Below are positions 2,243 to 51,803 of a stretch of 51,803 nt of DNA, piece after piece; position 1 is the first letter of the stretch; every line of letters starts with the position of its first letter. The position numbers and the translations under genes were made by a program. Source of the stretch: a virus; IMG/VR virus record IMGVR_UViG_3300023097_000005, positions 1 through 51,803 of that record; one strand, 5' to 3'. The notes beneath the pieces were generated by a model that was not told the DNA's origin, did no database searches, and worked only from the letters and a program-made list of their open reading frames with translations.

Positions 2243-3403
2243 TTACCGAACCTCGATAAACACATCCTCCCCATGACTCCGCAGTGCCTCTACGTTTCTC
2301 CTGATCTCAACTGACAGGTTCCAGGCCAGAACCACGAACAGAATCTTCCGAGCCTGCATTGTGCCAATCTCTGTGAATGGCACAATGCGCATGCCGCTCG
2401 TGCGCTTGTTCCACTTGGTCGGCGTGGTATCGGCCAGCACATCCAACTTCACGCCAGCCATATTCAGGATGGAAATACCCTTGGCTGCCGCTCCGCATCC
2501 AACAGTGTAAAATCCATCATCCTGATAGGTTTTGATGCGTTCCTTAATACGCGCGATTTTCTCAGCTACATGCGCTTTCCACCAGCGATAAATAGGACCG
2601 CGATGCAGTCCAACAGCGCGCTCCCATTGCATCCGGTTCTTCACACGAACAGATGACTCGCCCGCCAGTCCAAGCACGAAAACGTAGCTGGTTCCATGGA
2701 TGTCGTGCATGACAATATCCAACACTTTTAGACCGGATCGCTGCGCCAAATTCGCCATGGAGACGGAGTTGAAATACGAGATGTGCTCGTGATAAATCGT
2801 GTCGCACTCGCCATTCACGACGATGTTCGCCTGGGAGGTGGCGACAAACAACCGAGACCCGCTATGCATTATTTTTACGCATTTTCGTAAAAACTCCATC
2901 GGGCGGTGCGTGTGGGCGACAACATTCTGCGCGGTAATGATGTCGAAGGTGTGCCCCTCGGGGAATGTTGCATCCTCAAATAGCGAGATAATAACTCCGT
3001 GCCCTTTGGTAGCCGCGATAACCGCCAAGTTCACAGCTGGATCAACGCCGGTTGTCTTCAGGCCCAGCGCCTTAAAGGCGTCCAGTTGCGAGCCATCATT
3101 GCTAGCGATGTCTAAAATGGATGAGGCTGACGGCACGTAGCTCAACGCCGTGCGCGCAAAGGAGGCGAAGAAATCCGCCGCCGTTCGGCCTGTTCCGGAA
3201 CAGTAAGCGTAATCACTGTAAAGAACCAGCGGATCGACGGCCCCACTTAATTGCAGATGGCAGCAAGCCGCGCAGCGATTGACCCGCATCGGCACCAATT
3301 CATCCACTCCGTAGGTGTTGACTAAAGGCATCCCTCCAAAGTCAATGAGCGGAACCAGCACCCCCTCGCAGCACAGACATCTAGGAAGCGGGATGATGTT
3401 CAT
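2243..3403 (-). CDS. NDP-sugar C-methyltransferase-like SAM-dependent methyltransferase
   Basis: N-terminal CxxC...CxxC zinc ribbon (CLCCEG...CAACCH), SAM motif I ILDIASNDG, and a C-terminal C-methyltransferase-type domain. Start refined to Met at 3403 (MNIIPLPRC); the longer ORF N-terminus looks out of frame. Confidence 0.7.
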   Translation of the reverse strand: MNIIPLPRCLCCEGVLVPLIDFGGMPLVNTYGVDELVPMRVNRCAACCHLQLSGAVDPLVLYSDYAYCSGTGRTAADFFASFARTALSYVPSASSILDIASNDGSQLDAFKALGLKTTGVDPAVNLAVIAATKGHGVIISLFEDATFPEGHTFDIITAQNVVAHTHRPMEFLRKCVKIMHSGSRLFVATSQANIVVNGECDTIYHEHISYFNSVSMANLAQRSGLKVLDIVMHDIHGTSYVFVLGLAGESSVRVKNRMQWERAVGLHRGPIYRWWKAHVAEKIARIKERIKTYQDDGFYTVGCGAAAKGISILNMAGVKLDVLADTTPTKWNKRTSGMRIVPFTEIGTMQARKILFVVLAWNLSVEIRRNVEALRSHGEDVFIEVR

Positions 3404-4076
3404 GGACGAGACTGATCTTGGATGGGTTGCCGCTGAAAACCTTAGGCTCGTACCACGGGATGGGATAGCCCGGTTCGATGCGAATGGGGTGATCGCCCAC
3501 AAACTGACGGCAGAACTCAGCCACCGGCACAGCATTACCAGTGCAGCAATCCATGATGCCATTAACCTCCGTTTGAAGCGCCACATCCACCAAACGTGCG
3601 GCCACTTCGCGAACATCCATAAAGTCTCGGGAGCCGTCGATAACCTTAAACACCTCGTCACCGCGATTCATGGCCTCGGCCAAACTCGGCACGAGACATT
3701 CCCTGCGCTGACCTGGGCCATGAAGATACCATAGCCTGACCCATTTGGCGCGGGGCAACTTGCTCATCAGAAATTCGCGCACGAAAGTCTTGGCCATTCC
3801 GTAGGCTGGTGGAATCGCCACCGTCTCAAGGCATGTTCCGGCCACGGTGATGTTCTTGATTTCATCAGCCAGCATGGCGTCCAGTAAATCGCACTGCCAT
3901 TGGGCATGTTCCAGATGGGAGGCGTTTTCGTAGTTGGGCAATCCACCCCACGCCAAATGGATGACGGCAGCCGGTCGATCTGTAAAATCATTGGAGAGTT
4001 CGATTCCTCGATCCAACAGGCACTTCACGACATGCTTGCCCACAAAACCTGACTTTCCTGTGACCAATACCTTCAT
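3381..4076 (-). CDS. NAD-dependent sugar epimerase/reductase (extended SDR family)
   Basis: MKVLVTGKSGFVGKHV Rossmann GxxGxxG motif and a YGMAK (YxxxK) catalytic motif. Confidence 0.75.
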   Translation of the reverse strand: MKVLVTGKSGFVGKHVVKCLLDRGIELSNDFTDRPAAVIHLAWGGLPNYENASHLEHAQWQCDLLDAMLADEIKNITVAGTCLETVAIPPAYGMAKTFVREFLMSKLPRAKWVRLWYLHGPGQRRECLVPSLAEAMNRGDEVFKVIDGSRDFMDVREVAARLVDVALQTEVNGIMDCCTGNAVPVAEFCRQFVGDHPIRIEPGYPIPWYEPKVFSGNPSKISLVHEHHPAS

Positions 4077-6825: not shown

Positions 6826-7535
6826 GGCAGATGCGCCTTTAATTCCCGCATGAGTTTCACATCCAATTCACGGCTGTGATCCTGCTTCACCCGAAAAAAG
6901 AAGTGCCCATCGGCCTTGTGCAGATCGGAAAAGTCTGTGAACTCGAATGGCTCGCCGCCTCCGTACGTCATACAGGCCCATTTTCCGTCGAATTGATCGT
7001 CAATCGTGCAGAACATCGCCCCCTGCTTCATATCGATTCCGATGCCCTGCGCGCAGCGAGTGATCGCCTCGTCGTCCATGAGTTTGTTCTTCCATCCACC
7101 CCCCGCTGCCACCATGCGCTCCACAACGTCACGCGAGATGATGTATTGCCCGCCCCCCCAGAGAAAGCCTTGCTCATCCGCGCCTCCTGTCCACGCCCCC
7201 CTTAGAACGCCAGTTCGAGGCAGACTCTCACAGTGCTTCGCTAAATTTCCCTTGTGGACATAGCAACTGGAGTTTGGTCGGGCCAAAAAATCCCATTCTT
7301 TCTCCAAGGCCCAACCGAACGCCTCCAGCGTTCTAGGGCTGATATTTTCCAGCGAATCCTCCATTGCCGAGTATCGGATATTCTCGCGCCTCAACTCGTT
7401 GCCGTTGTGCTGGGCGCAGTAATAAAGCGTTTCCACGTCAGGATGATCGACCGCATCCCACGTCAGAAGCGATGTGTCCATGAGTCTGTCCCATGGGTCG
7501 CGGCGTGAACTCAGGACGAGAATCAGGACTTTCAT
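6822..7535 (-). CDS. Fringe/GT31-like glycosyltransferase
   Basis: FLWGGGQYIISRDVVERMV...LMDDEAITRCAQGIGI matches the GGaG..lSr...DD..lG.C pattern of Fringe-like GT-A enzymes. Confidence 0.5.
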   Translation of the reverse strand: MKVLILVLSSRRDPWDRLMDTSLLTWDAVDHPDVETLYYCAQHNGNELRRENIRYSAMEDSLENISPRTLEAFGWALEKEWDFLARPNSSCYVHKGNLAKHCESLPRTGVLRGAWTGGADEQGFLWGGGQYIISRDVVERMVAAGGGWKNKLMDDEAITRCAQGIGIDMKQGAMFCTIDDQFDGKWACMTYGGGEPFEFTDFSDLHKADGHFFFRVKQDHSRELDVKLMRELKAHLP

Positions 7536-8218
7536 GCCAGCGCCCTTTTTTTAGCGGGCCGGAACGAACCTTCAGCCATTCTGGACAAGACGCGCTCTTT
7601 CCCATGCGTCCGGTACGCCTGTTTTACGGCTGAGTAACTGACCCCATTAATCTCAGCCAATTCTGATAAGCATACACTAGTGCCATTCCATTCGACCCTG
7701 ACGTTGATATTGGAGTTTCTGCCTTGTTCTAGTGGAGTCGCCCAGCGGCAGTTTCCGGGTTCATAATTTCCGTTGTGGTTGGGAAATCTGTCCAGTGTCG
7801 TTCCATTGGGTCGTTCACCCATGTCTCGCAAAAAGTTCTTAAACTCACTCCATTCATCACAAACCCTAACGCCCCGACCACCGTAGGTTTTCCAGAACGG
7901 ATCATTGGGATTTGAGCACCGATTTTTCATTGAATACCAAGAGGTATAAGTTCTGGTGCATTTACCATTCTCGCGCCTTGTGTGCCTGTGAAATATACAC
8001 CCGCAGCTTATGGTTTTCCCGTTGGCTATATGCACACCACGAACCGCCTTGTATTTACCGCAATCGCATTTGCACATCCACAATCGAATAGATGCTCCAT
8101 TCGGACTTCGGAGCGATGGAATCTCGTATTGAACAACGAGATTCCCTGATCGATGACCCGTTAAATCTTTTGCTTTTGGCATACACCAAATACCACAGTA
8201 TTGAAGCCTATTACGCAA
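7532..8218 (-). mobile_element. Phage Zn-ribbon / YGGRG-NCRW DNA-binding protein (homing-endonuclease-associated family)
   Basis: Motifs CKCDCGKYK...SCGC...YTSWYSMKNRCSNPNDPFWKTYGGRGVRVCDEWSEFKNFLRDMGERPNGTTLDRFPNHNGNYEPGNCRWATPLEQGRN. AT-rich relative to its neighbours. Start could be Met at 8182. Confidence 0.55.
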
Positions 8219-19100: not shown

Positions 19101-20840
19101 GTCGAATATTTCCTTGCCGAACTTCGGACGACCAGCAATCTCACCCTGCAAATCGCGAATCGTCGCCTCGTAAGTCTGCGCGACCTTTTGGAGTTCCAGC
19201 GCCTCAGTCTCGGCATGCTGCCCGCGCTCCACTTGTGTCTGGAGTTCCTGAATCTTGGCCGCCTGCTCCTTGATCTTTCCACGCTCCGCCTCGGTCAGTG
19301 GTCGCTCGACTTTGGCACGAAGTTTACGCTCCATGGCTTCCAGCGTGAAATCCTCGCGGATCATGCGCTGATACAAGTGTCCGACACGTCCCCATGTGGA
19401 ACCGGCAGCGCGCTGGGCCTGATCGAGTCGATTAAGGTTCTCCTCGGCCTGCTGGATGCGCTCACGGGCAATCTCCACGTCTTCACCGCGTCCAAGGCGC
19501 TCCTCCCACTGGCTGCGCTCATTCATCACCCGTTGACGCTCGACCAGCAGGGTGGCGGCATCCTGTTCGGTGATGGCCCGCTCTCCCTTGTCCACAATAC
19601 GCGCGACCAGAGTTGGAGCCACCGCAGGATCGGCATCAATGCGATCCTCGGCAGACCGAACGAGTGTTTCTTCGCGCTGCCGTTCGACGGTTGGAATGGA
19701 TTCCTCTCCGCGTGTCAGGCGATCTATATCCACCGTGGCTCGTTTCAGACCCGTGGTTGCGCCTTGTGCCTGCATCTCCGAAGCCTCAACAGGCCCCATG
19801 GCACCTGGTCCGCCAGTATAATCCGGTGGAGTTTCAGGAGTCACCGCCGCCCGCGTAGGCTCTGTGGTGACTGGCGCGGGTAGCGGCTCCTGACTCTGGG
19901 GTTTTTCCACAGAAGGAGGTTCAGTTTTGGGAATGGATTCCTGAAGGATTTCCGGCGCGGTGCGGATAGCCTCGGCGGTGAGCGGAGCATCCGCTTGAAG
20001 CGCCTGATTGACAATAACATCCATGGAGCGAGGGATGGTGTTCCCCTGCGCGTCCATCGGCAGGCTGGGTGGACGCGTGCCTCCACCTGCACTGGGCCGA
20101 CTCGCTGCATGTTGACCGGCGAGCACGGCCATGCCGGTGTTTTCGATCAATCCAGTGATGGCCTGATCGCGTTCCTCGGGCGTGGCGGCATTCGCCACAT
20201 TGGAAATGGCTTCCGGAGTGTTCTTGATCGCCTGACCAGCGAAGATAGCCGCGACCAGTTTTTGAAGTCCCTTCGGCGCAGCACCAAGGCCCATTGTGGC
20301 GATGCCAAGTGGAGAAGTCAGTGAATTAACTGTATCGGCCACCACATTCTGACTAATGGCACCTACACGCTCGGTAATTGTCGGTTTACGGAAGGGTGAC
20401 ACCCCACGCTGCAAGGCTTCTTCATCCGACATGATGCGTTCAGGGGCCAACGGAGCGGCGTTGGGAATCACCTTAACGAGCGGCGTCATGGCGGCCTCCA
20501 TCTTGGTGATTGGAGTTTTCATCACCTGCTCGGCTTGCGCCGAATCGTACGCCGCTTTGGTGTCGTATGTCTGAGGACGTTGCGGAACTTCGCCAGTAAC
20601 GCCGATGGGCTGCGCCTTTTGGAGAAATGAACTTAGGTTTCCAAGGTCTTCAGGAACATCAGCAGCAATCGACCGATCACCGACCGATAATGGTTCCTGA
20701 ACGCCCATGCGGGCTGTTTCTTCCACGGAAACACCGCCCACTGGGGTTTCCACTGCTTCCGGTGGAGTCCACGAATTAGCCTCTGGCGGAGTCCATCCGC
20801 TGGTTGCCGTAGATGCTTCCGGTGGTGCCCATGCGGCCAT
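16152..20840 (-). CDS. Giant (1562 aa) coiled-coil virion/ejection-type protein
   Basis: Start refined to MAAWAPPEA (TAATG overlap with the upstream stop). Features: triple W[AT]PPEA repeat, ~900 aa of E/K/R/A coiled coil, and a conserved-looking C-terminal domain (HSQRAYTTFLNRLRADSF) with hydrophobic segments. Confidence 0.6.
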   Translation of the reverse strand: MAAWAPPEASTATSGWTPPEANSWTPPEAVETPVGGVSVEETARMGVQEPLSVGDRSIAADVPEDLGNLSSFLQKAQPIGVTGEVPQRPQTYDTKAAYDSAQAEQVMKTPITKMEAAMTPLVKVIPNAAPLAPERIMSDEEALQRGVSPFRKPTITERVGAISQNVVADTVNSLTSPLGIATMGLGAAPKGLQKLVAAIFAGQAIKNTPEAISNVANAATPEERDQAITGLIENTGMAVLAGQHAASRPSAGGGTRPPSLPMDAQGNTIPRSMDVIVNQALQADAPLTAEAIRTAPEILQESIPKTEPPSVEKPQSQEPLPAPVTTEPTRAAVTPETPPDYTGGPGAMGPVEASEMQAQGATTGLKRATVDIDRLTRGEESIPTVERQREETLVRSAEDRIDADPAVAPTLVARIVDKGERAITEQDAATLLVERQRVMNERSQWEERLGRGEDVEIARERIQQAEENLNRLDQAQRAAGSTWGRVGHLYQRMIREDFTLEAMERKLRAKVERPLTEAERGKIKEQAAKIQELQTQVERGQHAETEALELQKVAQTYEATIRDLQGEIAGRPKFGKEIFDIARGIVNRWKSEADAVDVNIRDFLGSETGAAGDVRPGGRKMGEAPTPKSEFIRNVALKMRAQIGEKGLNFAEASAEMIAAFGEKIKPYLQPAWEQAQALIGKEKTDLEVKKAIRKGAVKTNPAEAKPADVLARAATEAAEKKPISHQTVYDLARAHINAGIHGENAVMKAVHADLVKLYPELTERQVRQAFSQYGEVKFPSKEADKVELRELRTLVRLQESIDRETAGLEALKSGPQRDKATQAIREKQRQLNDLLKRRERPATPEQLATRDEARKTALRNQIEDLDKQLRTGEKPPAGTKPMDSVAIEQLKAERDAMRSKLREIEESEKVRPSPEQQRESVQIKSAEKSIAELDRRLREGELEAKAKPSPEVSARVQQLRSERDAMREQLRAMQDEAKTRLSPEDKQVADLAKIRDRLNETLSGAREQTKAKDFNPLSRAAADLKAEILAMQELAAQVRRDAKPPVDRIGRETAAKVKALEAAIAEYDRKISSKDFASASKGEKGESAVVKVLRDVRDARRKMYEAAKKADKPVRSAEEIYNDRRLKDVKRQMEAVQKRIAAGDYTRPEKPAPIPKTKEVKEAEFQLAQEKKKFNEGLFKADLEKRSAGRKAFDTTREVFNTARAIQTSADLSAVLRQGGFIAIGHPLRAAKAIPSMLKSFLSERGEHAVNSEILARPNAPKYAESKLYLHDPNDLRLSKMEEAYMSRWANKIPGVSHSQRAYTTFLNRLRADSFDAMTEAMGREPLPAEAQAIANFINVATGRGTLAQAGAAAVNLNTFLFSPRYLSSRFELLAGQPFYKGTAATRVAIAKEYARTLGGLAVIYTLGKLAGATIESDPKDSDFGKLKFGNTRVDLMMGLAQVTTFEARLGSVLSKFAKGEKIKPGEGDFLARFIRSKLAPVPASVIDAATGKDIVGQPVTRTSAATRLVKPLVIDDIVKTMEEQGIERGTAISLLIILGMSSQTYQRKGERPALIEPDEP

Positions 20841-21661
20841 TACTGTTTCGTCAGTTGCTGACCCTTCCACCAGAACTTTTCGCCCGGTTTCAAGGTGGCG
20901 TGAATCTCTGGCGTAATATCGGGCTGATTGGCGGCGGCATCACGTCCAGCCACAATGCCCGTCGCCGCACCGGCAACAGTAGTTGGGATGGCTGCTACGG
21001 GTTCAGGCTGAATGGGTTTGGTGGTCGTTTTGGTCGTGCCATCATCATACTTCACCGTGGTGCGCTCGGTGCCGAAATCGACAGGCTTTGCAGGCTCTGG
21101 TGCAGCCATGGTCACACCATCGACCACAACTTGCTTGGGTCGCATTCCTCCAGCGGCCTGAAGCGCACGCTGGCGGGCCGCCTCTTCCTCGGCCTGCTTG
21201 GCCGTGCGCTCAATCACCTTCTGGCGCAGTGGAAGATTATATCCCATCCACTCCTTGACGCCGGGATGTTCGGCGGCGTCTGGGTAGCCCGCGAGCATAT
21301 CCTGAAGTTGAGTATCGAACTCTGCGGCGGAAGGGTTCATGCCGCGCGCATCTTTCAGGAACCCCACGCCCTGCTTTGTCACCTCCAAGGTGCGATCCAA
21401 CTTGCGTTGCTCGGACAACATTTGCAGTTCGCGCTGTTGCTGCTCGATTTCGGCTTTCTGTTTTTGCAGAGCTAGGCTTTCCTGCGAAATAGCCAGCCGA
21501 CCCTCGGCATTGACCGCGCGTTGGGAGGCGGCCTCCGCACGACGCTGTGCTTCCGCTTCACGAAAGGCATCGCGTCCAGCCATCAGTTCATCGCGCTCCA
21601 CATTCTCTAGTCGGAGTCGATTTTCCTTTGCTCTATCTGGAAATTGAGTGCGTTCAGCCAT
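20840..21661 (-). CDS. Coiled-coil hypothetical protein (virion/ejection module)
   Basis: 273-aa ORF with a charged coiled-coil N-terminal half. Confidence 0.5.
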   Translation of the reverse strand: MAERTQFPDRAKENRLRLENVERDELMAGRDAFREAEAQRRAEAASQRAVNAEGRLAISQESLALQKQKAEIEQQQRELQMLSEQRKLDRTLEVTKQGVGFLKDARGMNPSAAEFDTQLQDMLAGYPDAAEHPGVKEWMGYNLPLRQKVIERTAKQAEEEAARQRALQAAGGMRPKQVVVDGVTMAAPEPAKPVDFGTERTTVKYDDGTTKTTTKPIQPEPVAAIPTTVAGAATGIVAGRDAAANQPDITPEIHATLKPGEKFWWKGQQLTKQ

Positions 21662-42879: not shown

Positions 42880-43515
42880 ATGACACGGGAGAGGCGCTTT
42901 GTTTTGATGGCATACACCAAAGAATACCTTGAATATCTAGAATCAACCCACTGGCACAATCTCCGCGAGATGGCCTTCAATCGCGTGAACAGGAAGTGCG
43001 AAGTCTGTTCGCTGCCCAAGAAACTACAGGGCCACCACCTGATCTATCGGTCGCGTCTGGAAGACGGAATTGTTGATGACATCATGTGCCTCTGTGGAAA
43101 ATGCCACGATCTGTGGCACGAATGGCTTCGCGCGACGGGACGTAAATTGCATGAGTTCTGCCGTCAATCCACGCGAGGCGCGTTGCTGGTTTTGGGGGAT
43201 GTAAAATGGCGCAAGAAGGAGATTGAAAAGCCCGAACCGAGACCCGTCTATATCCCACTCAATCCACCGAAATTAGAGCCGAAACAGAAGATGTCCAAAA
43301 AGGACAAGCGAACACTCTTCGTCCCAGATGCCAGAAACGCGACTCAAAAGAAGATGATGGAAGACCCTGTTTTCGTTCAGCATCTCACAATGAAGCGACG
43401 TGATTTCCTACACTGGAGGAGCGAGTATTTCAAAGGCTGCCCAAAATACGTTTCGCTTCAGGCTAATTCATCGGTGATTTATGACCGAATGGCACGACGA
43501 AGAAAATCCCTATGA
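42880..43515 (+). CDS. HNH-motif protein
   Basis: STHWHNLREMAFNRVNRKCEVCS...GHHLIY...LCGKCHDLWH. Alternative start Met 42907. Confidence 0.6.
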   Translation: MTRERRFVLMAYTKEYLEYLESTHWHNLREMAFNRVNRKCEVCSLPKKLQGHHLIYRSRLEDGIVDDIMCLCGKCHDLWHEWLRATGRKLHEFCRQSTRGALLVLGDVKWRKKEIEKPEPRPVYIPLNPPKLEPKQKMSKKDKRTLFVPDARNATQKKMMEDPVFVQHLTMKRRDFLHWRSEYFKGCPKYVSLQANSSVIYDRMARRRKSL

Positions 43516-44124: not shown

Positions 44125-44198
44125 GCGGTAGTAGCTTAGTGGGAAAGCCGCTGTTTTCCAAACAGCATAAGCGAGTTCGATTCTCGACTACCGCTCCA
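44125..44198 (+). tRNA. tRNA-Gly (anticodon UCC), CCA encoded
   Basis: GCGGTAG TA GCTT AGTGGGA AAGC C GCTGT TTTCCAA ACAGC ATAA GCGAG TTCGATT CTCGA CTACCGC T CCA. Canonical U8, A14, GG, A21 and T-loop, with one G-A mismatch at the top of the T stem. Confidence 0.85.
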
Positions 44199-44576: not shown

Positions 44577-44737
44577 TTACCGGCGTGACAACGGCAATTC
44601 GCAAAGCCATTCGTAGACCTCGCGCAGCAACAGGTAGTAGACGCAGGCGGCAGCAATCACGACTTCAACCCCCAGTAGGCGCTCGCGCAGAGCAGCAGGC
44701 CAAGGGCGCACCAGACGATGAGAGGGCCGTAGGTCAT
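44577..44737 (-). CDS. Two tiny hydrophobic ORFs (26 and 27 aa) coupled downstream of the endolysin
   Basis: MTYGPLIVWCALGLLLCASAYWGLKS (44657..44737, ATGA with the endolysin stop) and V/MIAAACVYYLLLREVYEWLCELPLSRR (44577..44660, GTGA overlap). Confidence 0.25.
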
Positions 44738-45204
44738 AGCCGAGCGAACTGAAAGTGCATCCAGTCGTAATTCCGTGCCCTGCCGAGGCTCAGTGCCCCT
44801 TCTCCCTCGACAATCCTCCAAAATGGCTCATAGGCAGGCTTTGCCAGTTCCGCGCGATCCTTGCCCCATTTAAGCTGATTGCGCTCATCGTCAATATCGA
44901 CCGCCGCCCCCCATGAGTGAATCGACCAGGATGAACCGCCCCGCATCTTGCGCACGTTCAGGCACCCAGAGAACCGGTCGAGTCCCAGCGCCTGAATACG
45001 GTCAATGCCGTAGCTCTCCAGAGTCTTTGTGAAAATTCGCGTGAGCGGCTCGGCGATCTTTTCGTGGCAGGTGATGCGACTGAGCTTGGTGGATGGCTCC
45101 CAAGTGAGCTTCATCTGGTAGGGCAGCATGATCCGTGTCTGATTCTCGCCGACCGACCCAAAGAACTTGTTCATGCTGGCCGCATCCTGCTTAGGCCAAT
45201 TCAT
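44734..45204 (-). CDS. Endolysin, peptidase M15 (VanY / L-Ala-D-Glu peptidase-like)
   Basis: SWSIHSWGAAVDID (H-x6-D zinc ligands) and DWMHFQ. Confidence 0.85.
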   Translation of the reverse strand: MNWPKQDAASMNKFFGSVGENQTRIMLPYQMKLTWEPSTKLSRITCHEKIAEPLTRIFTKTLESYGIDRIQALGLDRFSGCLNVRKMRGGSSWSIHSWGAAVDIDDERNQLKWGKDRAELAKPAYEPFWRIVEGEGALSLGRARNYDWMHFQFARL

Positions 45205-45647
45205 CGCGTTTCCTCCAGATCGGGGATGGTGTTGAGCGGGCGATAGCTCTCGTCATCCCTATAGCGTTCGGACATATCACGAACAATCTGCTCATTCACA
45301 ACATGCTCTGTGCGATTCTCGTTGATTCTCTCGCTCAAATGCTGCGCCGTCTCCACGACCGTTGAGGCCGTCTGATTCTTCCACTCGTAGACCAATCGGC
45401 CTGTGACCATGAAAACCACGATGGCCCCGATGACGTAAAAGGCGTTGTTCGTAAAGCTCGTAAAGCTCGTCATCGAATGCTCTGGCAAGGAGTACAAATG
45501 CCAAACCGCCCAACGCCACATCAGCAGCACGATGGTGATTCCAAGACACGAAAGAGCCATGCGCTGCCACGGCAGACGTTCCTTCCCGCGCTGGCGAACG
45601 ACTTGCTTTGGAGCATCTGGGGACTCGACTGAAATCTCGGTCTTCAT
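45201..45647 (-). CDS. Holin candidate (two-TM membrane protein)
   Basis: TM segments LSCLGITIVLLMWRWAVW and AFYVIGAIVVFMVTGRLV. ATGA-coupled directly upstream of the endolysin. Confidence 0.5.
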   Translation of the reverse strand: MKTEISVESPDAPKQVVRQRGKERLPWQRMALSCLGITIVLLMWRWAVWHLYSLPEHSMTSFTSFTNNAFYVIGAIVVFMVTGRLVYEWKNQTASTVVETAQHLSERINENRTEHVVNEQIVRDMSERYRDDESYRPLNTIPDLEETR

Positions 45648-46170: not shown

Positions 46171-46406
46171 TGGTCTGCGCGAATATACCCAGTTCCACTG
46201 GAGTCAACTTTGAAGGATGGTCCGACCTTGGTGACACATTCAAATGCCGCCTCTTCGTAGCCATCATCGCCGGGGTGGAGTTCTTTAAATATCCTTTCCT
46301 CTGAAGGCGGCATCTCGCAAATGGCGAACCATAGTCCTTCAATCCACCAGCGAAAACGAGTCCTGAATGGAACGGGTACAGAGACGGTTTTGTATCGAGT
46401 GTTCAT
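46167..46406 (-). CDS. Hypothetical protein
   Basis: Start MNTRYKTVSVPV, ATGA-coupled to the spanin-like stop. Confidence 0.45.
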   Translation of the reverse strand: MNTRYKTVSVPVPFRTRFRWWIEGLWFAICEMPPSEERIFKELHPGDDGYEEAAFECVTKVGPSFKVDSSGTGYIRADQ

Positions 46407-47050
46407 GGTTTGAAAAGGAGGTAAGCCATGATCGCGCATCCCAACGTAGCACCGCTCCCCCACAGCACCAGCCAGCCCAGTTTCTTCTCAGCTTTCATTC
46501 GCCCCTCGCGCTCCTTGTCGGCCAGATCAGCGTTGGCGTTCGTCGCTTGGGTCTTGGCTTCATCCTGATCCTTCAGACTTTGCAGCAGCCCCGTAAGCTC
46601 GTCCTGCCGTGCGCCAGCGGTGGCCGCATCGGCCTTGGCCCCCTGCACGCCCGCATTCGTCTCCTCGCCCGCCTTCTCCGCATCAGCCAGCGCAGGTACC
46701 GTCTCCGTTTCGTGCAGTTCTTTCAACGCGCCGATCTGCACTTGTAGCTTCTCCACTTCCGGTCGCATATCAGGCGCAGCCGCCTTGAACAGCACCGCCG
46801 CTTGTTCGCTCAGGGCCACGAGCGATTTGCTCTCGTAGTTAGCCGATAGCCGCGCACGCCCGACTGAACCGCGCTGGCGATTGTTCGCTTCCTCAATGGC
46901 CTTGACGCGCTTGACCACGCTAGCCACCGCGACCCTAGCAGCTTCGTGCGTCTTCTCCGCTGGCGAGAAGTCGGCGCGCTCAACCCGAATCGGCTTGTTC
47001 GATTGGCACCCCGCGAGAGCTAGGCAGAGCAGGAGAGCGGCGGGGCGCAT
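46403..47050 (-). CDS. Unimolecular spanin (u-spanin)-like protein: lipoprotein signal plus C-terminal TM
   Basis: MRPAALLLCLALAGCQSN (lipobox LAGC), a helical/coiled middle, and a C-terminal TM segment LGWLVLWGSGATLGCAIMAYLLF. Confidence 0.55.
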   Translation of the reverse strand: MRPAALLLCLALAGCQSNKPIRVERADFSPAEKTHEAARVAVASVVKRVKAIEEANNRQRGSVGRARLSANYESKSLVALSEQAAVLFKAAAPDMRPEVEKLQVQIGALKELHETETVPALADAEKAGEETNAGVQGAKADAATAGARQDELTGLLQSLKDQDEAKTQATNANADLADKEREGRMKAEKKLGWLVLWGSGATLGCAIMAYLLFKP

Positions 47051-47259
47051 TACCGTATTTCCATGCAGCACTCGATTGGAATTTCAACGCAGAGATCAAC
47101 GGTTGCGAACCCATGCTTTCCGTCGCTCCACAGGGAATGAATAGTTTGCTCCGTTCCTACAAGCCGAGTGGTTCGGTCGATTGCCGTCTTCTCGAAACCC
47201 AAAGCCTCCAAATGATTGCGAAGACTTGGCAGGATTTTCACCCTTGAACCTACATTCAT
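47050..47259 (-). CDS. Hypothetical protein
   Basis: 69-aa ORF with a TAATG overlap to the next gene. Confidence 0.45.
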   Translation of the reverse strand: MNVGSRVKILPSLRNHLEALGFEKTAIDRTTRLVGTEQTIHSLWSDGKHGFATVDLCVEIPIECCMEIR

Positions 47260-47446: not shown

Positions 47447-47830
47447 CTACTGCTGCCGGTTGCGCCAGTAGGCTCTTTCGACTGGGCCGAATCGCCCCTC
47501 GATCTGCGTCAGGTAAGCCGTATTGGAGTCCAGTTGGAACTTTGCATCCCATTTCCAGTCTTCCAATCGGGAAATCCGCGTGTCGAGACGATCCGCCTTA
47601 TTGCCCTGATCGCCATGCACGCGCCGAACTTCTTCCTGAAGCTGGCTGATCGTGGCCTCGTAGGAGGAGAACTTGGCCGATAGCCACCATACGCCGCCGA
47701 TGATGCTGCCTGCGCCGACAAATGCACCAATGAGGAACGCCCAGAAAAGACGGCCCACGACCTGATTGGCAATGGCGGTCGCGCGGGATTTCACAATGGA
47801 TTCGATGTGTTCTTCTTCGTTTTCGCTCAT
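47447..47830 (-). CDS. Membrane-anchored coiled-coil protein
   Basis: TM segment LFWAFLIGAFVGAGSIIGGVWWL followed by a coiled coil. Confidence 0.5.
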   Translation of the reverse strand: MSENEEEHIESIVKSRATAIANQVVGRLFWAFLIGAFVGAGSIIGGVWWLSAKFSSYEATISQLQEEVRRVHGDQGNKADRLDTRISRLEDWKWDAKFQLDSNTAYLTQIEGRFGPVERAYWRNRQQ

Positions 47831-47835
47831 AGTGG

Positions 47836-48231
47836 TTATTTGTTGAGGGCTTCGGATTCTCCTCCTTTATACCGCAGGCTCACGCTGGCGAGCAAAATAC
47901 CCGCCGCGTTTTTCATGTCCTTCGCTGAAGTCGGGTCATTCAGGATGTCCTCCAGCATGGAGTAGAGCTTATTGACTTCGTGCCACGCGAGGTTCTCGGC
48001 CTCGTATTTCTCCAGCAGATCATCCAGTTCAGGGGTGTGGGGTGAATGAAGTACGCGCACGGCTTTCTTGCCCATAGTCTGGAACGAATCCCGAATCCAG
48101 CCGATGTCCGTCTCGATCTTGGTCAGGCGATCCCCATGGGAAAAGGATTTGCTGAGGAGAAAGGCTATCGTGGGGGCGACGATAAAGGTCAGGAAAAGAC
48201 CTATTCCCCACATGACAACGACCTTATCCAT
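47836..48231 (-). CDS. N-terminally anchored membrane protein
   Basis: TM segment VVMWGIGLFLTFIVAPTIAFLL. Confidence 0.5.
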   Translation of the reverse strand: MDKVVVMWGIGLFLTFIVAPTIAFLLSKSFSHGDRLTKIETDIGWIRDSFQTMGKKAVRVLHSPHTPELDDLLEKYEAENLAWHEVNKLYSMLEDILNDPTSAKDMKNAAGILLASVSLRYKGGESEALNK

Positions 48232-48637
48232 GCGGTTCCTTGGGAATGATGACCGCCATGACCTTCAGCCCTTTTGGAGTCATGCGGGGCTCCAGGACAA
48301 TCCGCACGGGGATTTCCTTGCCGCTCTTGTGCTTGGCCTTCAGTTCCATCTCCTCGCCCATCGGACGGGAGCGGGGCTTGTCGGCAAAGCCGTTGCGATG
48401 TTTGACATGCGTCTCCTTGGAAACATCTGGCACCAGAATCTCGATCATTTGCCCGACCAGTTCGGAGCGATGATAACCGAACAGAAACTCGGCGGCGATG
48501 TTGGCCAGTTCAATGGAGAAATCCTGTGAGACCACAATCGTGGCAACTGGTGAATGTTCCACCATCCACGTCAGGCTGGCGGGGTCAATCAGTTGGCGCT
48601 TGGCCGTATCGACAATGGCCTGATCTTCAGGGTTCAT
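48224..48637 (-). CDS. Stand-alone PAS-domain protein
   Basis: SPVATIVVSQDFSIELANIAAEFLFGYHRSELVGQMIEILVP...HVKHRNGF...RPMGEEMELKAKHKSGKEIPVRIVLEP matches the PAS S-box pattern (N.AA..lFGY...EL.G; R.mG....l.a.rKdG.e.PV.i.l.P). Confidence 0.75.
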   Translation of the reverse strand: MNPEDQAIVDTAKRQLIDPASLTWMVEHSPVATIVVSQDFSIELANIAAEFLFGYHRSELVGQMIEILVPDVSKETHVKHRNGFADKPRSRPMGEEMELKAKHKSGKEIPVRIVLEPRMTPKGLKVMAVIIPKEPHG

Positions 48638-48804
48638 GGGGCTTCTCTTGGTGTTGGACGATCATTAATTTCATCTGCCGCATCTCTAGCGCCATCCAGA
48701 GTTGGACGACCAGCAGAACGACGAAGGCCAAAAGCAGCAGGGTCTTTAGACATTGGCGTTTCCTCTCACGCTCAGGCCGGTTCGTGGGTGAAGAGTGGAA
48801 CACA

Positions 48805-49755
48805 TCACAGGGTCGTTTCTTCTGCGGTGATAAGGGCGAAAACGGGTGTGCCAAGCGCATTGACCGACCGTAGGCGCGCGTAATATCCAGCGGGCACGAA
48901 GGCGCTGATCTGAGCCACGACTGTATCGGTGTTGGAAAAGGCGATAGCCAGACCGACAAGTTGCGAGTTCGCCACTCGACCCGCTTCCTTCCAGTCGGAG
49001 GCGGTGACAGAATTAGTGGCTGCCACTTCCAGAACCACGTAACCAGAGACGGATGTAACGACTCCAATCTGCACGGTACAAGCCACGCTGACCGAATAGC
49101 GAACGACAGAATTAAGGGTGGCGCTGACTTGCCAGCCGTTGGCCGCTGCTGCGACCGTGACGATGGAGCGCGCAGCGGTTCGGTTGATCGTCCATGCAAT
49201 CCCTGCTGTTACGCGGCCCTTGGTATCGACCGTTACCGTCGAGTACGTTCCTGCGCTGACTCCGGTCAAGGTGAGCGTGGGATTCGGGTAGGTTCCAGTC
49301 AGGTCGCCTCCCGCGCTTCCTGATGGCGCAAGGGAGGTTGGCAGTGTAGCGAGCGCTCCATCCCCGCGAACATATTGCAGAGTCGTTCCAACAGGAGTGG
49401 CGAACTTCGCATCCAGAGCGGTCTGTAATCCCGTGACGGTCGAGATGGACTGAACACCCGTATGATTCGCACGCTGAATGGCATACGCCTGTGCTGCGTT
49501 GGCCTTGGTAGTGGCATCTGTTGCTGCTGCGCTCGTGGCTGCTGATTGAGCGGCGTTTGCTTTGCTAGTCGCGTCACTGGAGGCCGTGGAGATTGCGGCG
49601 GACTGAGCCGCGCTGCTCTTGCTGGTGGCGTCTGTAGCGGCACTGGCCAGCGTCGAGGCATCCCCTGAGATGCGTGCGGATGTCTCCGAATCCAGTGCGG
49701 TGGTGCGCGAGAGCGTGTCAGGAAAGTTGCTGCCCGGTACTTGAAAGTCGCTCAT
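48805..49755 (-). CDS. Tail fibre protein
   Basis: Start [12 protein letters not shown]-coupled. Ala/Ser/Thr 19-aa repeats, [23 protein letters not shown], and [12 protein letters not shown]...[21 protein letters not shown] are classic tail-fibre motifs. Confidence 0.85.
49465..49635 (-). repeat. Three imperfect 57-bp (19-aa) tandem repeats inside the tail fibre gene
   Basis: [19 protein letters not shown] / [19 protein letters not shown] / [19 protein letters not shown]. Confidence 0.7.
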
Positions 49756-50213
49756 GCATTCCAATGGGGTAAGGACAACATCTGCGCTTTCAATGCCGCC
49801 AATTCCGTGTCTCCTGCAACGTCGATATCCGATATGAACTGCTTTAGCCTGGAGCGCATTATTCCGCAATCCGGTCCATAGGATTTGAAAAACGTGGTGG
49901 CTGCTGAGAATTGCGACATCACCCGCGCGAACTTCGCATCAGAAGTGATCTTTTCGACCAGGAAGATGAGCGCCTTTTGGAGTGTATCGGCATACGTCGC
50001 GCATTCGTCCAGCGCTCCAAGGCGGAACCATGTTGGCCCAGCACTGGCATCAAAGAACTTGTCTTTCGCCAGCGGATTTGGGCCAAGTGTGAACAACTGC
50101 GCATACTGCGGGTCGGTCAGCGTCGTGATCGTCTGACCATCGACCGCTGAGCGGTTGTCTGTGAACGGACCTATGAATCGTCCGCTAGAGTATAGGAGAA
50201 TTTTCTGGCTCAT
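49752..50213 (-). CDS. Hypothetical tail-module protein
   Basis: 153-aa ORF between the tailspike-associated gene and the tail fibre, ATGA-coupled. Confidence 0.5.
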
Positions 50214-50755: not shown

Positions 50756-51803
50756 ATCACGTTTGTGTCCACGGTGAATGGTCCGACCAATACAGTGACA
50801 TTGGCATTAGCAGCCCGATTGGAATAAGCGCTGTAGGAGACGATATTTTGCGCCGTCCCCGCAGCAATGGAATCCGCACCGACGTTGGCGACCAGTGTTG
50901 TTCCCGCCCCCAGCACGCAAGTACCGCCCGACTTTGTGATCGGGCTGGTTGTAGCCACTGCCGCCGTGTTGATGGTCGGTGCATTGAGTCGCAGGGTGCA
51001 GCCTGTTCCGACCGAAAACCCCTTGCTGGTCGCGGCTGTCCATTGACCGCCATTGATAACGCACAGGGAGGTGTCGGAATCGTTCGTGAGTTTCACCATC
51101 TCGGCGGTATTCCCAACGTCATCAAGGAACTCCTGCGAGGTGTATTCCAGCGAGCCGCCAGAAATGGCGATGTTGCAACTGGCGTTCTTCTGGCAGGTGA
51201 TCCAAACCAAGCCGGTGTCGATTTGAATGCGGCCATCGGTAGGAGAGACCCCGCCAAGCACGCCGAACTTGTTGGCGGTAAGATAGACCTTCCCGCCGGA
51301 GCCAAGGAACAACGAATTACCTCCGCGAAACTCAAAAGCCTCAATCCACATTTGCGCAGTCGGTTGCGTAGAGGCAATCCACTGGATCAGCAATCCATTG
51401 GCAGGGGCAAGCAAGCTGTTCGCCCGAATCCACAGCGCCCCGTTAATTGCATCCGCATTAGCGTCCACGTTGCCCACAACGGCCTGCCCAACTGCATTGC
51501 TAATCGCTTCAATCGTGAAGGCATAAATATCGCACCGCCCGCGCTCCCAATAAACAGGCGAGCCGTTGGTCGAAAGAATGCGGTTGCTGTGAACCTCCAT
51601 GCGCCCCTTGCCAGCCCAAATGGCTACAGGATATTCATTTGAAGGTGTGATGACCGTTGTTTCATCCGAGAGGAGGTTGGAATAGATGGTGATGAACGAC
51701 CCGGCGTTGGTCTGGTTGATGACCGTGCCGAAGACCCACGCTCCCACCTGCGGATTGATTGGCGCACCCGTGTTGCGGAAGGAGTCCCCTCGAATAACGC
51801 ATG
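50752..51803 (-). CDS. Tailspike / beta-helix protein, C-terminal part (continuation of 1..581)
   Basis: The ORF is open to the window edge. The track ORF 50752..51747 starts at an internal Met (MGAWVFGTVINQ...), and that peptide also appears in the minus translation of 1..127. The sequence is Gly/Asn/Ala-rich with repetitive beta-strand character. Confidence 0.8.
   Translation of the reverse strand, partial: CVIRGDSFRNTGAPINPQVGAWVFGTVINQTNAGSFITIYSNLLSDETTVITPSNEYPVAIWAGKGRMEVHSNRILSTNGSPVYWERGRCDIYAFTIEAISNAVGQAVVGNVDANADAINGALWIRANSLLAPANGLLIQWIASTQPTAQMWIEAFEFRGGNSLFLGSGGKVYLTANKFGVLGGVSPTDGRIQIDTGLVWITCQKNASCNIAISGGSLEYTSQEFLDDVGNTAEMVKLTNDSDTSLCVINGGQWTAATSKGFSVGTGCTLRLNAPTINTAAVATTSPITKSGGTCVLGAGTTLVANVGADSIAAGTAQNIVSYSAYSNRAANANVTVLVGPFTVDTNVI
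51677..51803. repeat. Second copy of the 127-nt terminal overlap
   Basis: Identical to 1..127 by direct comparison. Confidence 0.95.

Follow-up and report, generated by a model that had tools for sequence, protein, structure and literature searches.

The subject of this paper is a small gene in a virus sequence, IMG/VR record IMGVR_UViG_3300023097_000005, which was analysed over its whole length of 51,803 nucleotides (positions 1 to 51,803 of the record, referred to below as the window). The gene, an open reading frame (ORF) of 137 amino acids (aa) at positions 48,224–48,637 on the minus strand, encodes a genuine stand-alone PAS domain. The gene forms a strictly conserved two-gene phage module together with that of a small membrane protein, which begins within its last few nucleotides. 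By sequence criteria the PAS domain belongs to the FixL/DosP/FG214 heme-PAS clade. The overall reading proposed here is that it forms the sensor half of the module, that it would sense oxygen or redox state through heme, that it would signal via the membrane protein, and that the effect would be on lysis or some other late event at the cell envelope; taken as a whole this reading is tentative, and we would give it somewhat less than an even chance, although its separate parts differ widely in strength.

The PAS domain

The ORF starts with ATG, and its translation scores above the curated cut-offs of all the PAS models concerned. Pfam PAS (PF00989) matches with E = 6.2e-10 and 39.5 bits (cut-off 22.6), PAS_9 with a score of 31.4 (cut-off 27) and PAS_4 with 26.9 (cut-off 23.1), and the NCBIfam model TIGR00229, “PAS domain S-box”, matches with E = 4.3e-15 and 55.9 bits (cut-off 22.9). 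These results bear out an earlier reading of the same DNA, made from its letters alone and called here the original prediction, which had recognised an S-box pattern in two stretches of the translation (residues 44–70 and 91–117), had placed the ORF at exactly these coordinates, and had named PAS_4, PAS_9 and a predicted structure as suitable checks. It had also stated that the protein has no output domain, and this too agrees with what was found: there is no domain besides PAS in Pfam or NCBIfam, the PAS models being the only ones that match, and there is no fused HisKA/HATPase, GGDEF/EAL or helix-turn-helix (HTH) output. Because output domains were tested for and are absent, the protein is not a histidine kinase, an enzyme of cyclic di-GMP (c-di-GMP) metabolism or a one-component regulator. 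Hydropathy analysis reveals no hydrophobic 19-mer anywhere in the 137 residues, and the protein is referred to below as the soluble short form.

An AlphaFold2 (AF2) model, built from a shallow alignment, has PAS topology at moderate confidence (predicted local distance difference test score, pLDDT, of 73.6), with strands at residues 32–36, 41–45, 99–102, 108–120 and 123–132 and an F-alpha helix at residues 71–86. Foldseek aligns this model to PAS structures with a probability of 1.0 and TM-scores of 0.6–0.76. Used as a query, the window PAS sequence gave no match in PHROGs, in GenBank phages (tblastn) or in IMG/VR.

Relationship to heme-binding PAS domains

When the window PAS domain is searched against the sequences of the PDB, the only domains returned are heme-binding PAS domains. 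The best match is the heme-PAS of FG214 (PDB 10jx; E = 1.4e-18, over an ungapped alignment of 106 residues), followed by E. coli DosP, also called EcDOS (about 2e-7), and FixL (7e-7), and the Foldseek ranking of the model agrees, its first three structures being those of FG214, DosP and FixL. Among the named full-length equivalogs of NCBIfam, again only DosP and FixL are touched, each of them over its heme-PAS segment. FixL and DosP were grouped in a single PAS cluster by Xing et al. (2023, PMC10468136), whose criterion for the heme-binding members of that cluster is a His residue on the F-alpha helix; their PAS census makes no mention of viruses.

In the window protein the corresponding residue is His77 (codon 48,407–48,409, minus strand), which aligns without gaps to EcDOS His77 and FG214 His156, lies in helix 71–86 of the model and is the predicted proximal heme ligand. 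Met93 (codon 48,359–48,361, minus strand), 16 residues further along, is the predicted distal or alternative axial ligand; it occupies the position of FG214 Met172 and is offset by two residues from EcDOS Met95. Judged by alignment, both the proximal His and the distal Met position of the heme PAS domains in the FixL/DosP cluster are thus occupied, and the inspection of the pocket for heme ligands that the original prediction had recommended has in this way yielded two candidate residues. In the ungapped alignment to FG214, His156, His159, Met172 and His175 map respectively to H77, H80, M93 and E96 of the window. The roles of these FG214 residues rest on mutagenesis and crystals described in a preprint (bioRxiv 10.64898/2026.03.15.711900), according to which His156 is the proximal ligand (with H156I, heme binding is nearly lost), His159 belongs to the pocket, the distal ligand of the ferric state is His175, and Met172 is the distal iron ligand in a dithionite-reduced crystal.

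H77, M93 and R91 are each invariant in the representatives of the phage family (124/124 in every case). The 150 top-ranked cellular proteins contributed 900 PAS domains, of which 90% have the His and 34% the Met; the phage proteins therefore belong to the His/Met subtype. At the same time there is not a single cysteine in the 137 residues of the window protein, so that a LOV adduct, a PYP chromophore, a c-type heme (CXXCH) and an NreB-type Fe-S cluster, all of which require cysteine, are excluded.

On these grounds the window PAS domain probably binds a b-type heme with His/Met ligation. It might instead respond to a non-heme signal, either a small molecule or something sensed with no cofactor at all, and still pass that signal on through its membrane partner: heme binding is predicted here from sequence alone, PAS pockets are versatile, confidence in the model is low around the pocket, and in the FixL/DosP cluster the His is missing from about 40% of the members, whose specificities may be different (PMC10468136). 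However, it is difficult to see a non-heme domain in a family where the His and the Met are each kept by all 124 members and whose closest characterised relatives all bind heme, and we regard this alternative as unlikely.

The partner protein and the two-gene module

The gene that follows the PAS gene (47,836–48,231, minus strand) encodes a protein of 131 aa, in which a transmembrane helix at residues 4–22 precedes a helical domain of about 100 aa, predicted to be cytoplasmic (hydropathy, AF2 and the positive-inside rule). Reading the sequence directly, the stop codon of the PAS gene and the start codon of the partner gene fall within an overlap of 8 nt (ATGGATAA; 48,224–48,231, minus strand). 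The identical overlap is seen in two related loci, L001 and L003 (loci are given L numbers here, and PAS relatives P numbers), and it is consistent with translational coupling of the two genes. The AF2 model of the partner is a helical bundle (pLDDT 69). No family could be found for the protein in Pfam, PHROG, PADLOC or NCBIfam, it has no match by sequence in the PDB, and Foldseek returned none by structure (best E = 0.79).

A profile search with the partner nevertheless brought together at least 213 proteins (clusters at 90% identity) of 118–156 aa, mostly 120–140 aa, many of them encoded on contigs of 55–81 kb. In all of the distinct loci that bear a partner gene (19/19) a PAS gene lies directly upstream, and the two ORFs overlap or abut; for the PAS relatives P0002, P0003 and P0005 the arrangement is that of the window, with a homologous gene downstream. 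When the window was compared with L001 and the other loci, over flanks of +/-5–10 kb around the relatives, the PAS and partner genes were the only ones in common at the BLASTP thresholds used. Their subtypes also co-vary, in that the short PAS form occurs with a partner carrying the motif HSPHTPELD and the transmembrane PAS form with one carrying TNPTSERL. Both genes are under strong purifying selection, with dN/dS values of 0.02–0.07 for PAS and 0.02–0.22 for the partner, and the positive-inside rule places the PAS domain in the cytoplasm in 100% of 120 members and the C-terminal domain of the partner in 97% of 119.

The PAS and partner genes thus form a conserved two-gene phage module, in which the pairing is obligate in the sense that it holds for every partner locus examined. 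The partner was overlooked by the original prediction, and it is likely to be the output that the PAS domain itself lacks; that the two proteins interact physically seems to us very probable.

This pairing bears directly on a second proposal of the original prediction, namely that the PAS protein heterodimerises with host histidine kinases that contain PAS domains. In a more general form, the protein would be a decoy, pairing with the multi-PAS histidine kinases or c-di-GMP enzymes of the host and so rewiring host signalling. PAS domains commonly dimerise, the subfamily is very large in multi-PAS sensors (132,061 representatives, at about 85 bits per domain), and the nearest cellular relatives, at 40–44% identity, are PAS repeats in kinase-sized ORFs from metagenome-assembled genomes of diverse soil phyla. 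However, a decoy would need neither an obligate membrane partner, as seen in 19/19 loci, nor invariant heme-ligand positions, as seen in 124/124 proteins, and the idea leaves both the partner and the membrane anchor of most members (see below) without an explanation. Furthermore, the phage PAS domains are highly conserved across phages that are otherwise unrelated and do not track particular host kinases, and no close cellular donor came to light, a scan with a single peptide pattern having given nothing above 44% identity. The proposal has gained no specific support, it fits poorly with the obligate partner and the anchor, and we consider it improbable.

The partner was also considered as a component of the lysis machinery in its own right. 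As a holin, antiholin or spanin it has no match to any lysis family in PHROG, Pfam or NCBIfam, and its identification as an i-spanin or RI-type antiholin was rejected, such proteins needing a periplasmic domain where the C-terminal domain of the partner is placed in the cytoplasm (97% of members, as given above).

The exception to the usual pairing is L005, in which a PAS relative of 136 aa (P0004) is found without a partner-family gene. At L005:267-1206 the P0004 gene is followed by one for a 73-aa coiled-coil protein with a C-terminal transmembrane segment and then by one for a 103-aa membrane protein, an arrangement suggesting that small membrane proteins of other kinds can also accompany PAS. 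In the main group of phages the pair is followed closely by two more conserved genes (L026:8630-9550, L004:1530-2480 and the equivalent regions of L027–L041), one encoding a protein of about 146–171 aa with several cysteines and the other a protein of about 140–180 aa with a transmembrane segment and a coiled coil. These two genes, which are absent from loci of the window type, may belong to an extended form of the module.

Forms and distribution of the family

The family was uncovered by means of the partner profile together with a mixed PAS alignment; the window PAS domain alone had given 5 relatives. On the PAS side the search yielded at least 168 clusters (90% identity) at E <= 1e-10. An exhaustive PAS profile search returned 132,061 proteins in a ranking dominated by the summed scores of multi-PAS proteins, and these were re-ranked locally per domain. 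With a typical member placed first, a scan of IMG/VR using the partner alignment gave 7 loci, and a scan of metagenomes added 2 new ones. In 50,697 GenBank phage records neither the PAS gene nor the partner gene was found at the tblastn thresholds used, and the scan of genome contigs with a single peptide pattern gave only distant PAS domains of kinases (at most 44% identity) and no prophage copy. Because the family is large and is absent from the GenBank phage records searched, the module marks a sizeable group of uncultured phages.

The 120 family members listed are all of 164–202 aa and contain PAS domains only, as judged by Pfam, with no fused output domain. An N-terminal transmembrane helix is present in 120 of the 124 PAS representatives, and the soluble short form was seen in the window, L001, L003 and L028. 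Given these proportions, the 137-aa form of the window is a rare variant.

Two candidate small ORFs, at 48,627–48,803 and 48,634–48,753 (both on the minus strand), lie in the gap of 167 nt that separates the start of the PAS gene in the window from the tail-fibre-like ORF upstream. The first, which is in another frame from the PAS gene, encodes a hydrophobic stretch and a basic tail (ending in LLLLAFVVLLVVQLWMALEMRQMKLMIVQHQEKPHEP before the stop codon) and resembles the transmembrane anchor of the long form; its only starts are GTG and TTG, and its stop lies in an 11-nt overlap with the start of the PAS gene. The second, of 39 aa, has an ATG start, and its TGA overlaps the ATG of the PAS gene. 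The hydrophobic ORF could be the remnant of a lost anchor, or it could be there by chance; as regards the idea of a frameshifted transmembrane PAS, the other short-form loci showed no such hydrophobic frame ahead of the PAS gene.

Genomic neighbourhood

The PAS gene lies, just as the original prediction had described, between a probable tail fibre gene and a block of membrane-protein and lysis genes, all of them on the minus strand. Upstream, at 48,805–49,869, is an ORF of 354 aa that matches phrog_31472 (E = 1.4e-23) and phrog_28908 (E = 3e-16), both PHROGs without an assigned function, and that is read as a tail fibre from its repeat composition. Downstream of the partner gene come a single-pass membrane protein of 127 aa with a coiled-coil tail and a transmembrane segment at residues 29–47 (47,447–47,830; hydropathy, with no family above threshold), a u-spanin-like protein with a lipoprotein signal (LALAGC lipobox) and a C-terminal transmembrane segment (46,403–47,071; hydropathy and a weak match to the MltD lipid-attachment motif), and a holin candidate of 148 aa, identified by its position and its two transmembrane segments (45,201–45,647), which overlaps the start of the endolysin gene and for which no holin family match was found in Pfam, PHROG or NCBIfam. 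The endolysin itself (44,734–45,204) is an M15 L-Ala-D-Glu peptidase (phrog_17001, E = 6.6e-76) and is 61% identical to that of Paracoccus phage vB_PmaS-R3. A hydrophobic ORF of 43 aa is also present downstream of the PAS gene on the same strand.

Counting the window, genes of lysis type are found near the pair in five independent contexts. In L001 a holin-like gene with four transmembrane segments lies directly downstream (phrog_198, E = 4e-4), in L026 there is a holin-like gene near the pair (phrog_1299, E = 1e-3), in L039 XhlA is directly downstream, and in L040 the pair lies between a hydrolase-like gene (PG_binding_1), 1.7 kb upstream, and the terminase. As a link to lysis this recurrence is suggestive only. 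In the larger group of phages the pair closes a block of genes on one strand, in which it is preceded by small membrane proteins and by tail genes (Phage-tail_3, Laminin_G_3, Big_7); a divergent early region comes next.

The company of tail genes raises the question of whether the PAS domain is a sensor at all, or rather a factor for tail-fibre or virion assembly, a chaperone, or a protein that stores or scavenges heme. Tail genes of the three families just named stand immediately upstream in many loci, and in L001 and L003 the PAS gene actually overlaps the end of a large tail-fibre-like gene. Yet an N-terminal membrane anchor bearing a cytoplasmic PAS domain, as in 120/124 members, fits a fibre chaperone poorly. 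In phages of the L026 type four small genes separate the pair from the tail genes, and in L040 the pair adjoins the gene of the peptidoglycan-binding enzyme, upstream of the terminase and away from tail genes. The ligand positions that are conserved are moreover those of a sensor, and a non-sensory role strikes us as very improbable.

A different possibility is that the two genes form a moron-type cassette, a sensor plus a small membrane effector, serving superinfection exclusion, defence or conditional abortive infection. The end of the late region is a common moron site, the cassette is shared by phage genomes that are otherwise unrelated, and both of its proteins are membrane-associated in most members, all of which speaks for such an element. 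However, its genes share a strand with their late neighbours and overlap them, and in a scan for promoters and terminators around the pair the counts were at chance level. No integrase occurs among the window ORFs scanned, neither the PAS protein nor the partner nor their neighbours have a match in PADLOC-DB at E <= 0.01, and conservation this strong over more than 120 clusters looks like that of a core accessory function rather than of a fast-evolving defence gene. We therefore think this explanation quite unlikely.

Proposed mechanism

In the mechanism proposed here, the PAS domain would bind b-type heme through His77 as proximal ligand and Met93 as a distal, displaceable one, much as in ferrous DosP and FG214, and it would thus report O2, CO, NO or redox state. 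The signal would be conveyed by protein–protein contact to the product of the overlapping gene, a predicted single-pass inner-membrane protein with a cytoplasmic helical domain. In most of the phages the PAS protein would itself be held at the membrane by its anchor, the domain facing the cytoplasm, whereas in the window the partner would recruit a soluble PAS protein. Because the two genes lie on the strand of the late genes, in the company of lysis genes and those of small membrane proteins, the effect of the pair is most likely to be on a late envelope event; within that class, modulation of holin-mediated lysis timing according to the respiratory or redox state of the host would be the most probable. 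The original prediction had already proposed that lysis timing is modulated, and the recurrence of lysis-type genes in five contexts makes this plausible while leaving it a proposal; that lysis timing is the specific target of the pair we rate as possible, with the balance clearly on the other side.

A number of points weigh against this mechanism. Although H77 and M93 are invariant, H80, the equivalent of FG214 His159, is present in only 100 of the 124 representatives, and the bis-His coordination of FG214 is not available, the position of the distal His175 being Glu96 in the window and not His in the remaining short forms, and falling within a 3-residue deletion in the long forms. The AF2 model of the PAS protein is weakest (pLDDT 53–63) in the F-alpha and FG-loop region. 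For the partner, neither a family nor a fold could be recognised in Pfam, PHROG, PADLOC, NCBIfam, the PDB or Foldseek. The matches of the holin-like neighbours are weak (E of about 1e-3 to 1e-4), and, because the end of the late operon is in any case the usual site of lysis genes, proximity to them is weak evidence. Finally, late co-transcription of the pair is assumed, from strand and ORF overlap.

Lysis timing in phages is generally set by the accumulation of holin, with a few cases in which superinfection or quorum signals take part. If the mechanism were true, phages would be monitoring oxygen, NO/CO or redox state directly, these being proxies for the energy status of the host, and the finding would be relevant to phage ecology at oxic–anoxic interfaces in soil and sediment. 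The module would also be the first case of a gas sensor encoded by a phage, and its two-protein sensor–effector architecture, without kinase, cyclase or DNA-binding output, would be new, in effect a minimal PAS signalling system. The analysis points to a sensing of oxygen or redox state by many uncultured phages in the late stage of infection; the fuller statement, that widespread uncultured tailed phages possess their own heme-based gas or redox sensor, made up of a tethered PAS protein and a partner of novel fold, and that this reads the respiratory state of the host late in infection and gates lysis or another envelope event accordingly, we rate as rather unlikely. What the PAS/partner module does is inferred from its sequences. 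Compared with what was first noted, the case has become more interesting, in that a two-gene module with heme-type ligand positions has proved to be conserved and widespread, and also less singular, in that the family is large and the window ORF is one of its rare soluble variants.

The window as a phage genome

The first and last 127 bases of the window are identical (1–127 = 51,677–51,803), and the window is therefore a complete genome, circular or terminally redundant, of about 51.7 kb. The late genes on the minus strand run across its ends. It carries a distant terminase large subunit (14,317–16,155), HNH endonucleases and a DnaC-like loader. The HNH genes are at 7,532–8,218 (minus) and 42,880–43,515 (plus), and one of them (phrog_374, E = 2e-53), with homologues in L027, is inserted among minus-strand genes. 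As a hint to the host, the matches of the endolysin in alphaproteobacterial phages and cyanophages point to Gram-negative hosts.

Some further features of the genome may be recorded briefly. At 2,243–4,076 (minus) a C-methyltransferase (Methyltransf_14/_23/_13 plus a zinc-binding domain) is encoded beside a nucleotide-sugar epimerase-like protein (phrog_540), and these two may constitute a sugar-modification module for virion or DNA. Genes for tRNA-Met (CAT) and tRNA-Gly (TCC) are present at 9,102–9,174 (minus) and 44,125–44,198 (plus), the tRNA-Gly being about 80–86% identical to the tRNA-Gly genes of Streptomyces phages. Three presumed structural ORFs of 382, 795 and 1572 aa (9,856–13,666 and 16,152–20,870, minus) have no match in PHROG or Pfam, and for the 795-aa protein a tblastn search of GenBank phages was likewise negative; the virion module has diverged strongly from those of isolated phages.

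Comparison with known systems

Among viral proteins in general, PAS domains are not entirely new. The BFVD matches of the window PAS model include ORFs of uncultured Caudovirales annotated automatically as “PAS domain”, as well as PAS histidine kinases of giant viruses; these share the fold, and some are of similar size (169–205 aa), but their identity to the window protein in the structural alignment is only 14–21%. Because such PAS-only ORFs are already annotated in Caudovirales, phage-borne PAS domains must be regarded as present in the databases, though uncharacterised. The remark of the original prediction that it knew of no such described phage function stands, in that literature searches turned up neither a phage heme-PAS nor the PAS/partner gene pair, and needs qualifying as far as the existence of the ORFs is concerned.

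As a functional analogy only, the T4 proteins RI (an antiholin) and RIII may be mentioned. They are accessory proteins of lysis inhibition that adjust holin triggering to a signal (PMC11413866; PMC6832632), and like the pair described here they are small, one of them being membrane-anchored and the other cytoplasmic. There is no homology between the two systems, and the sensing domain of RI is periplasmic whereas both domains of the window pair are predicted to be cytoplasmic; the signal in T4 is superinfection, where for the window pair it would be a putative heme ligand.

A phage-encoded PAS sensor that does link an environmental signal to a life-cycle decision is VqmA-Phage of vibriophage VP882. 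This is a PAS-HTH quorum-sensing receptor, a DPO-binding transcription factor that triggers lysis and controls the switch from lysogeny to lysis (PMC8284805). The window PAS domain differs from it in having no HTH, in its heme-type ligand positions, in its location in the late region and in its membrane partner, and no sequence relationship between the two was detected (tblastn, GenBank phages).

The closest comparisons are with cellular heme sensors. DosP and FixL belong to the same PAS cluster and have the F-alpha His aligned with that of the window protein, which on alignment would preserve the His/Met hexacoordination logic of ferrous EcDOS, albeit with the Met shifted by two positions from Met95; in FixL, which is pentacoordinate, Ile stands where the Met would be. 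Both proteins, however, carry outputs of their own, EAL/GGDEF or histidine kinase, that the window protein lacks. FG214, a one-component HTH regulator from Fimbriimonas ginsengisoli, has in common with the window protein the motif H-x2-H-R ... R-x-M-G, but it is a cytosolic transcription factor with a fused HTH and the distal His175, whereas the phage protein lacks any DNA-binding domain and comes with a membrane partner. In the present case the sensor domain is thus a known one, and what is new is its architecture, with a separate membrane partner and no enzymatic output, and its biological setting.

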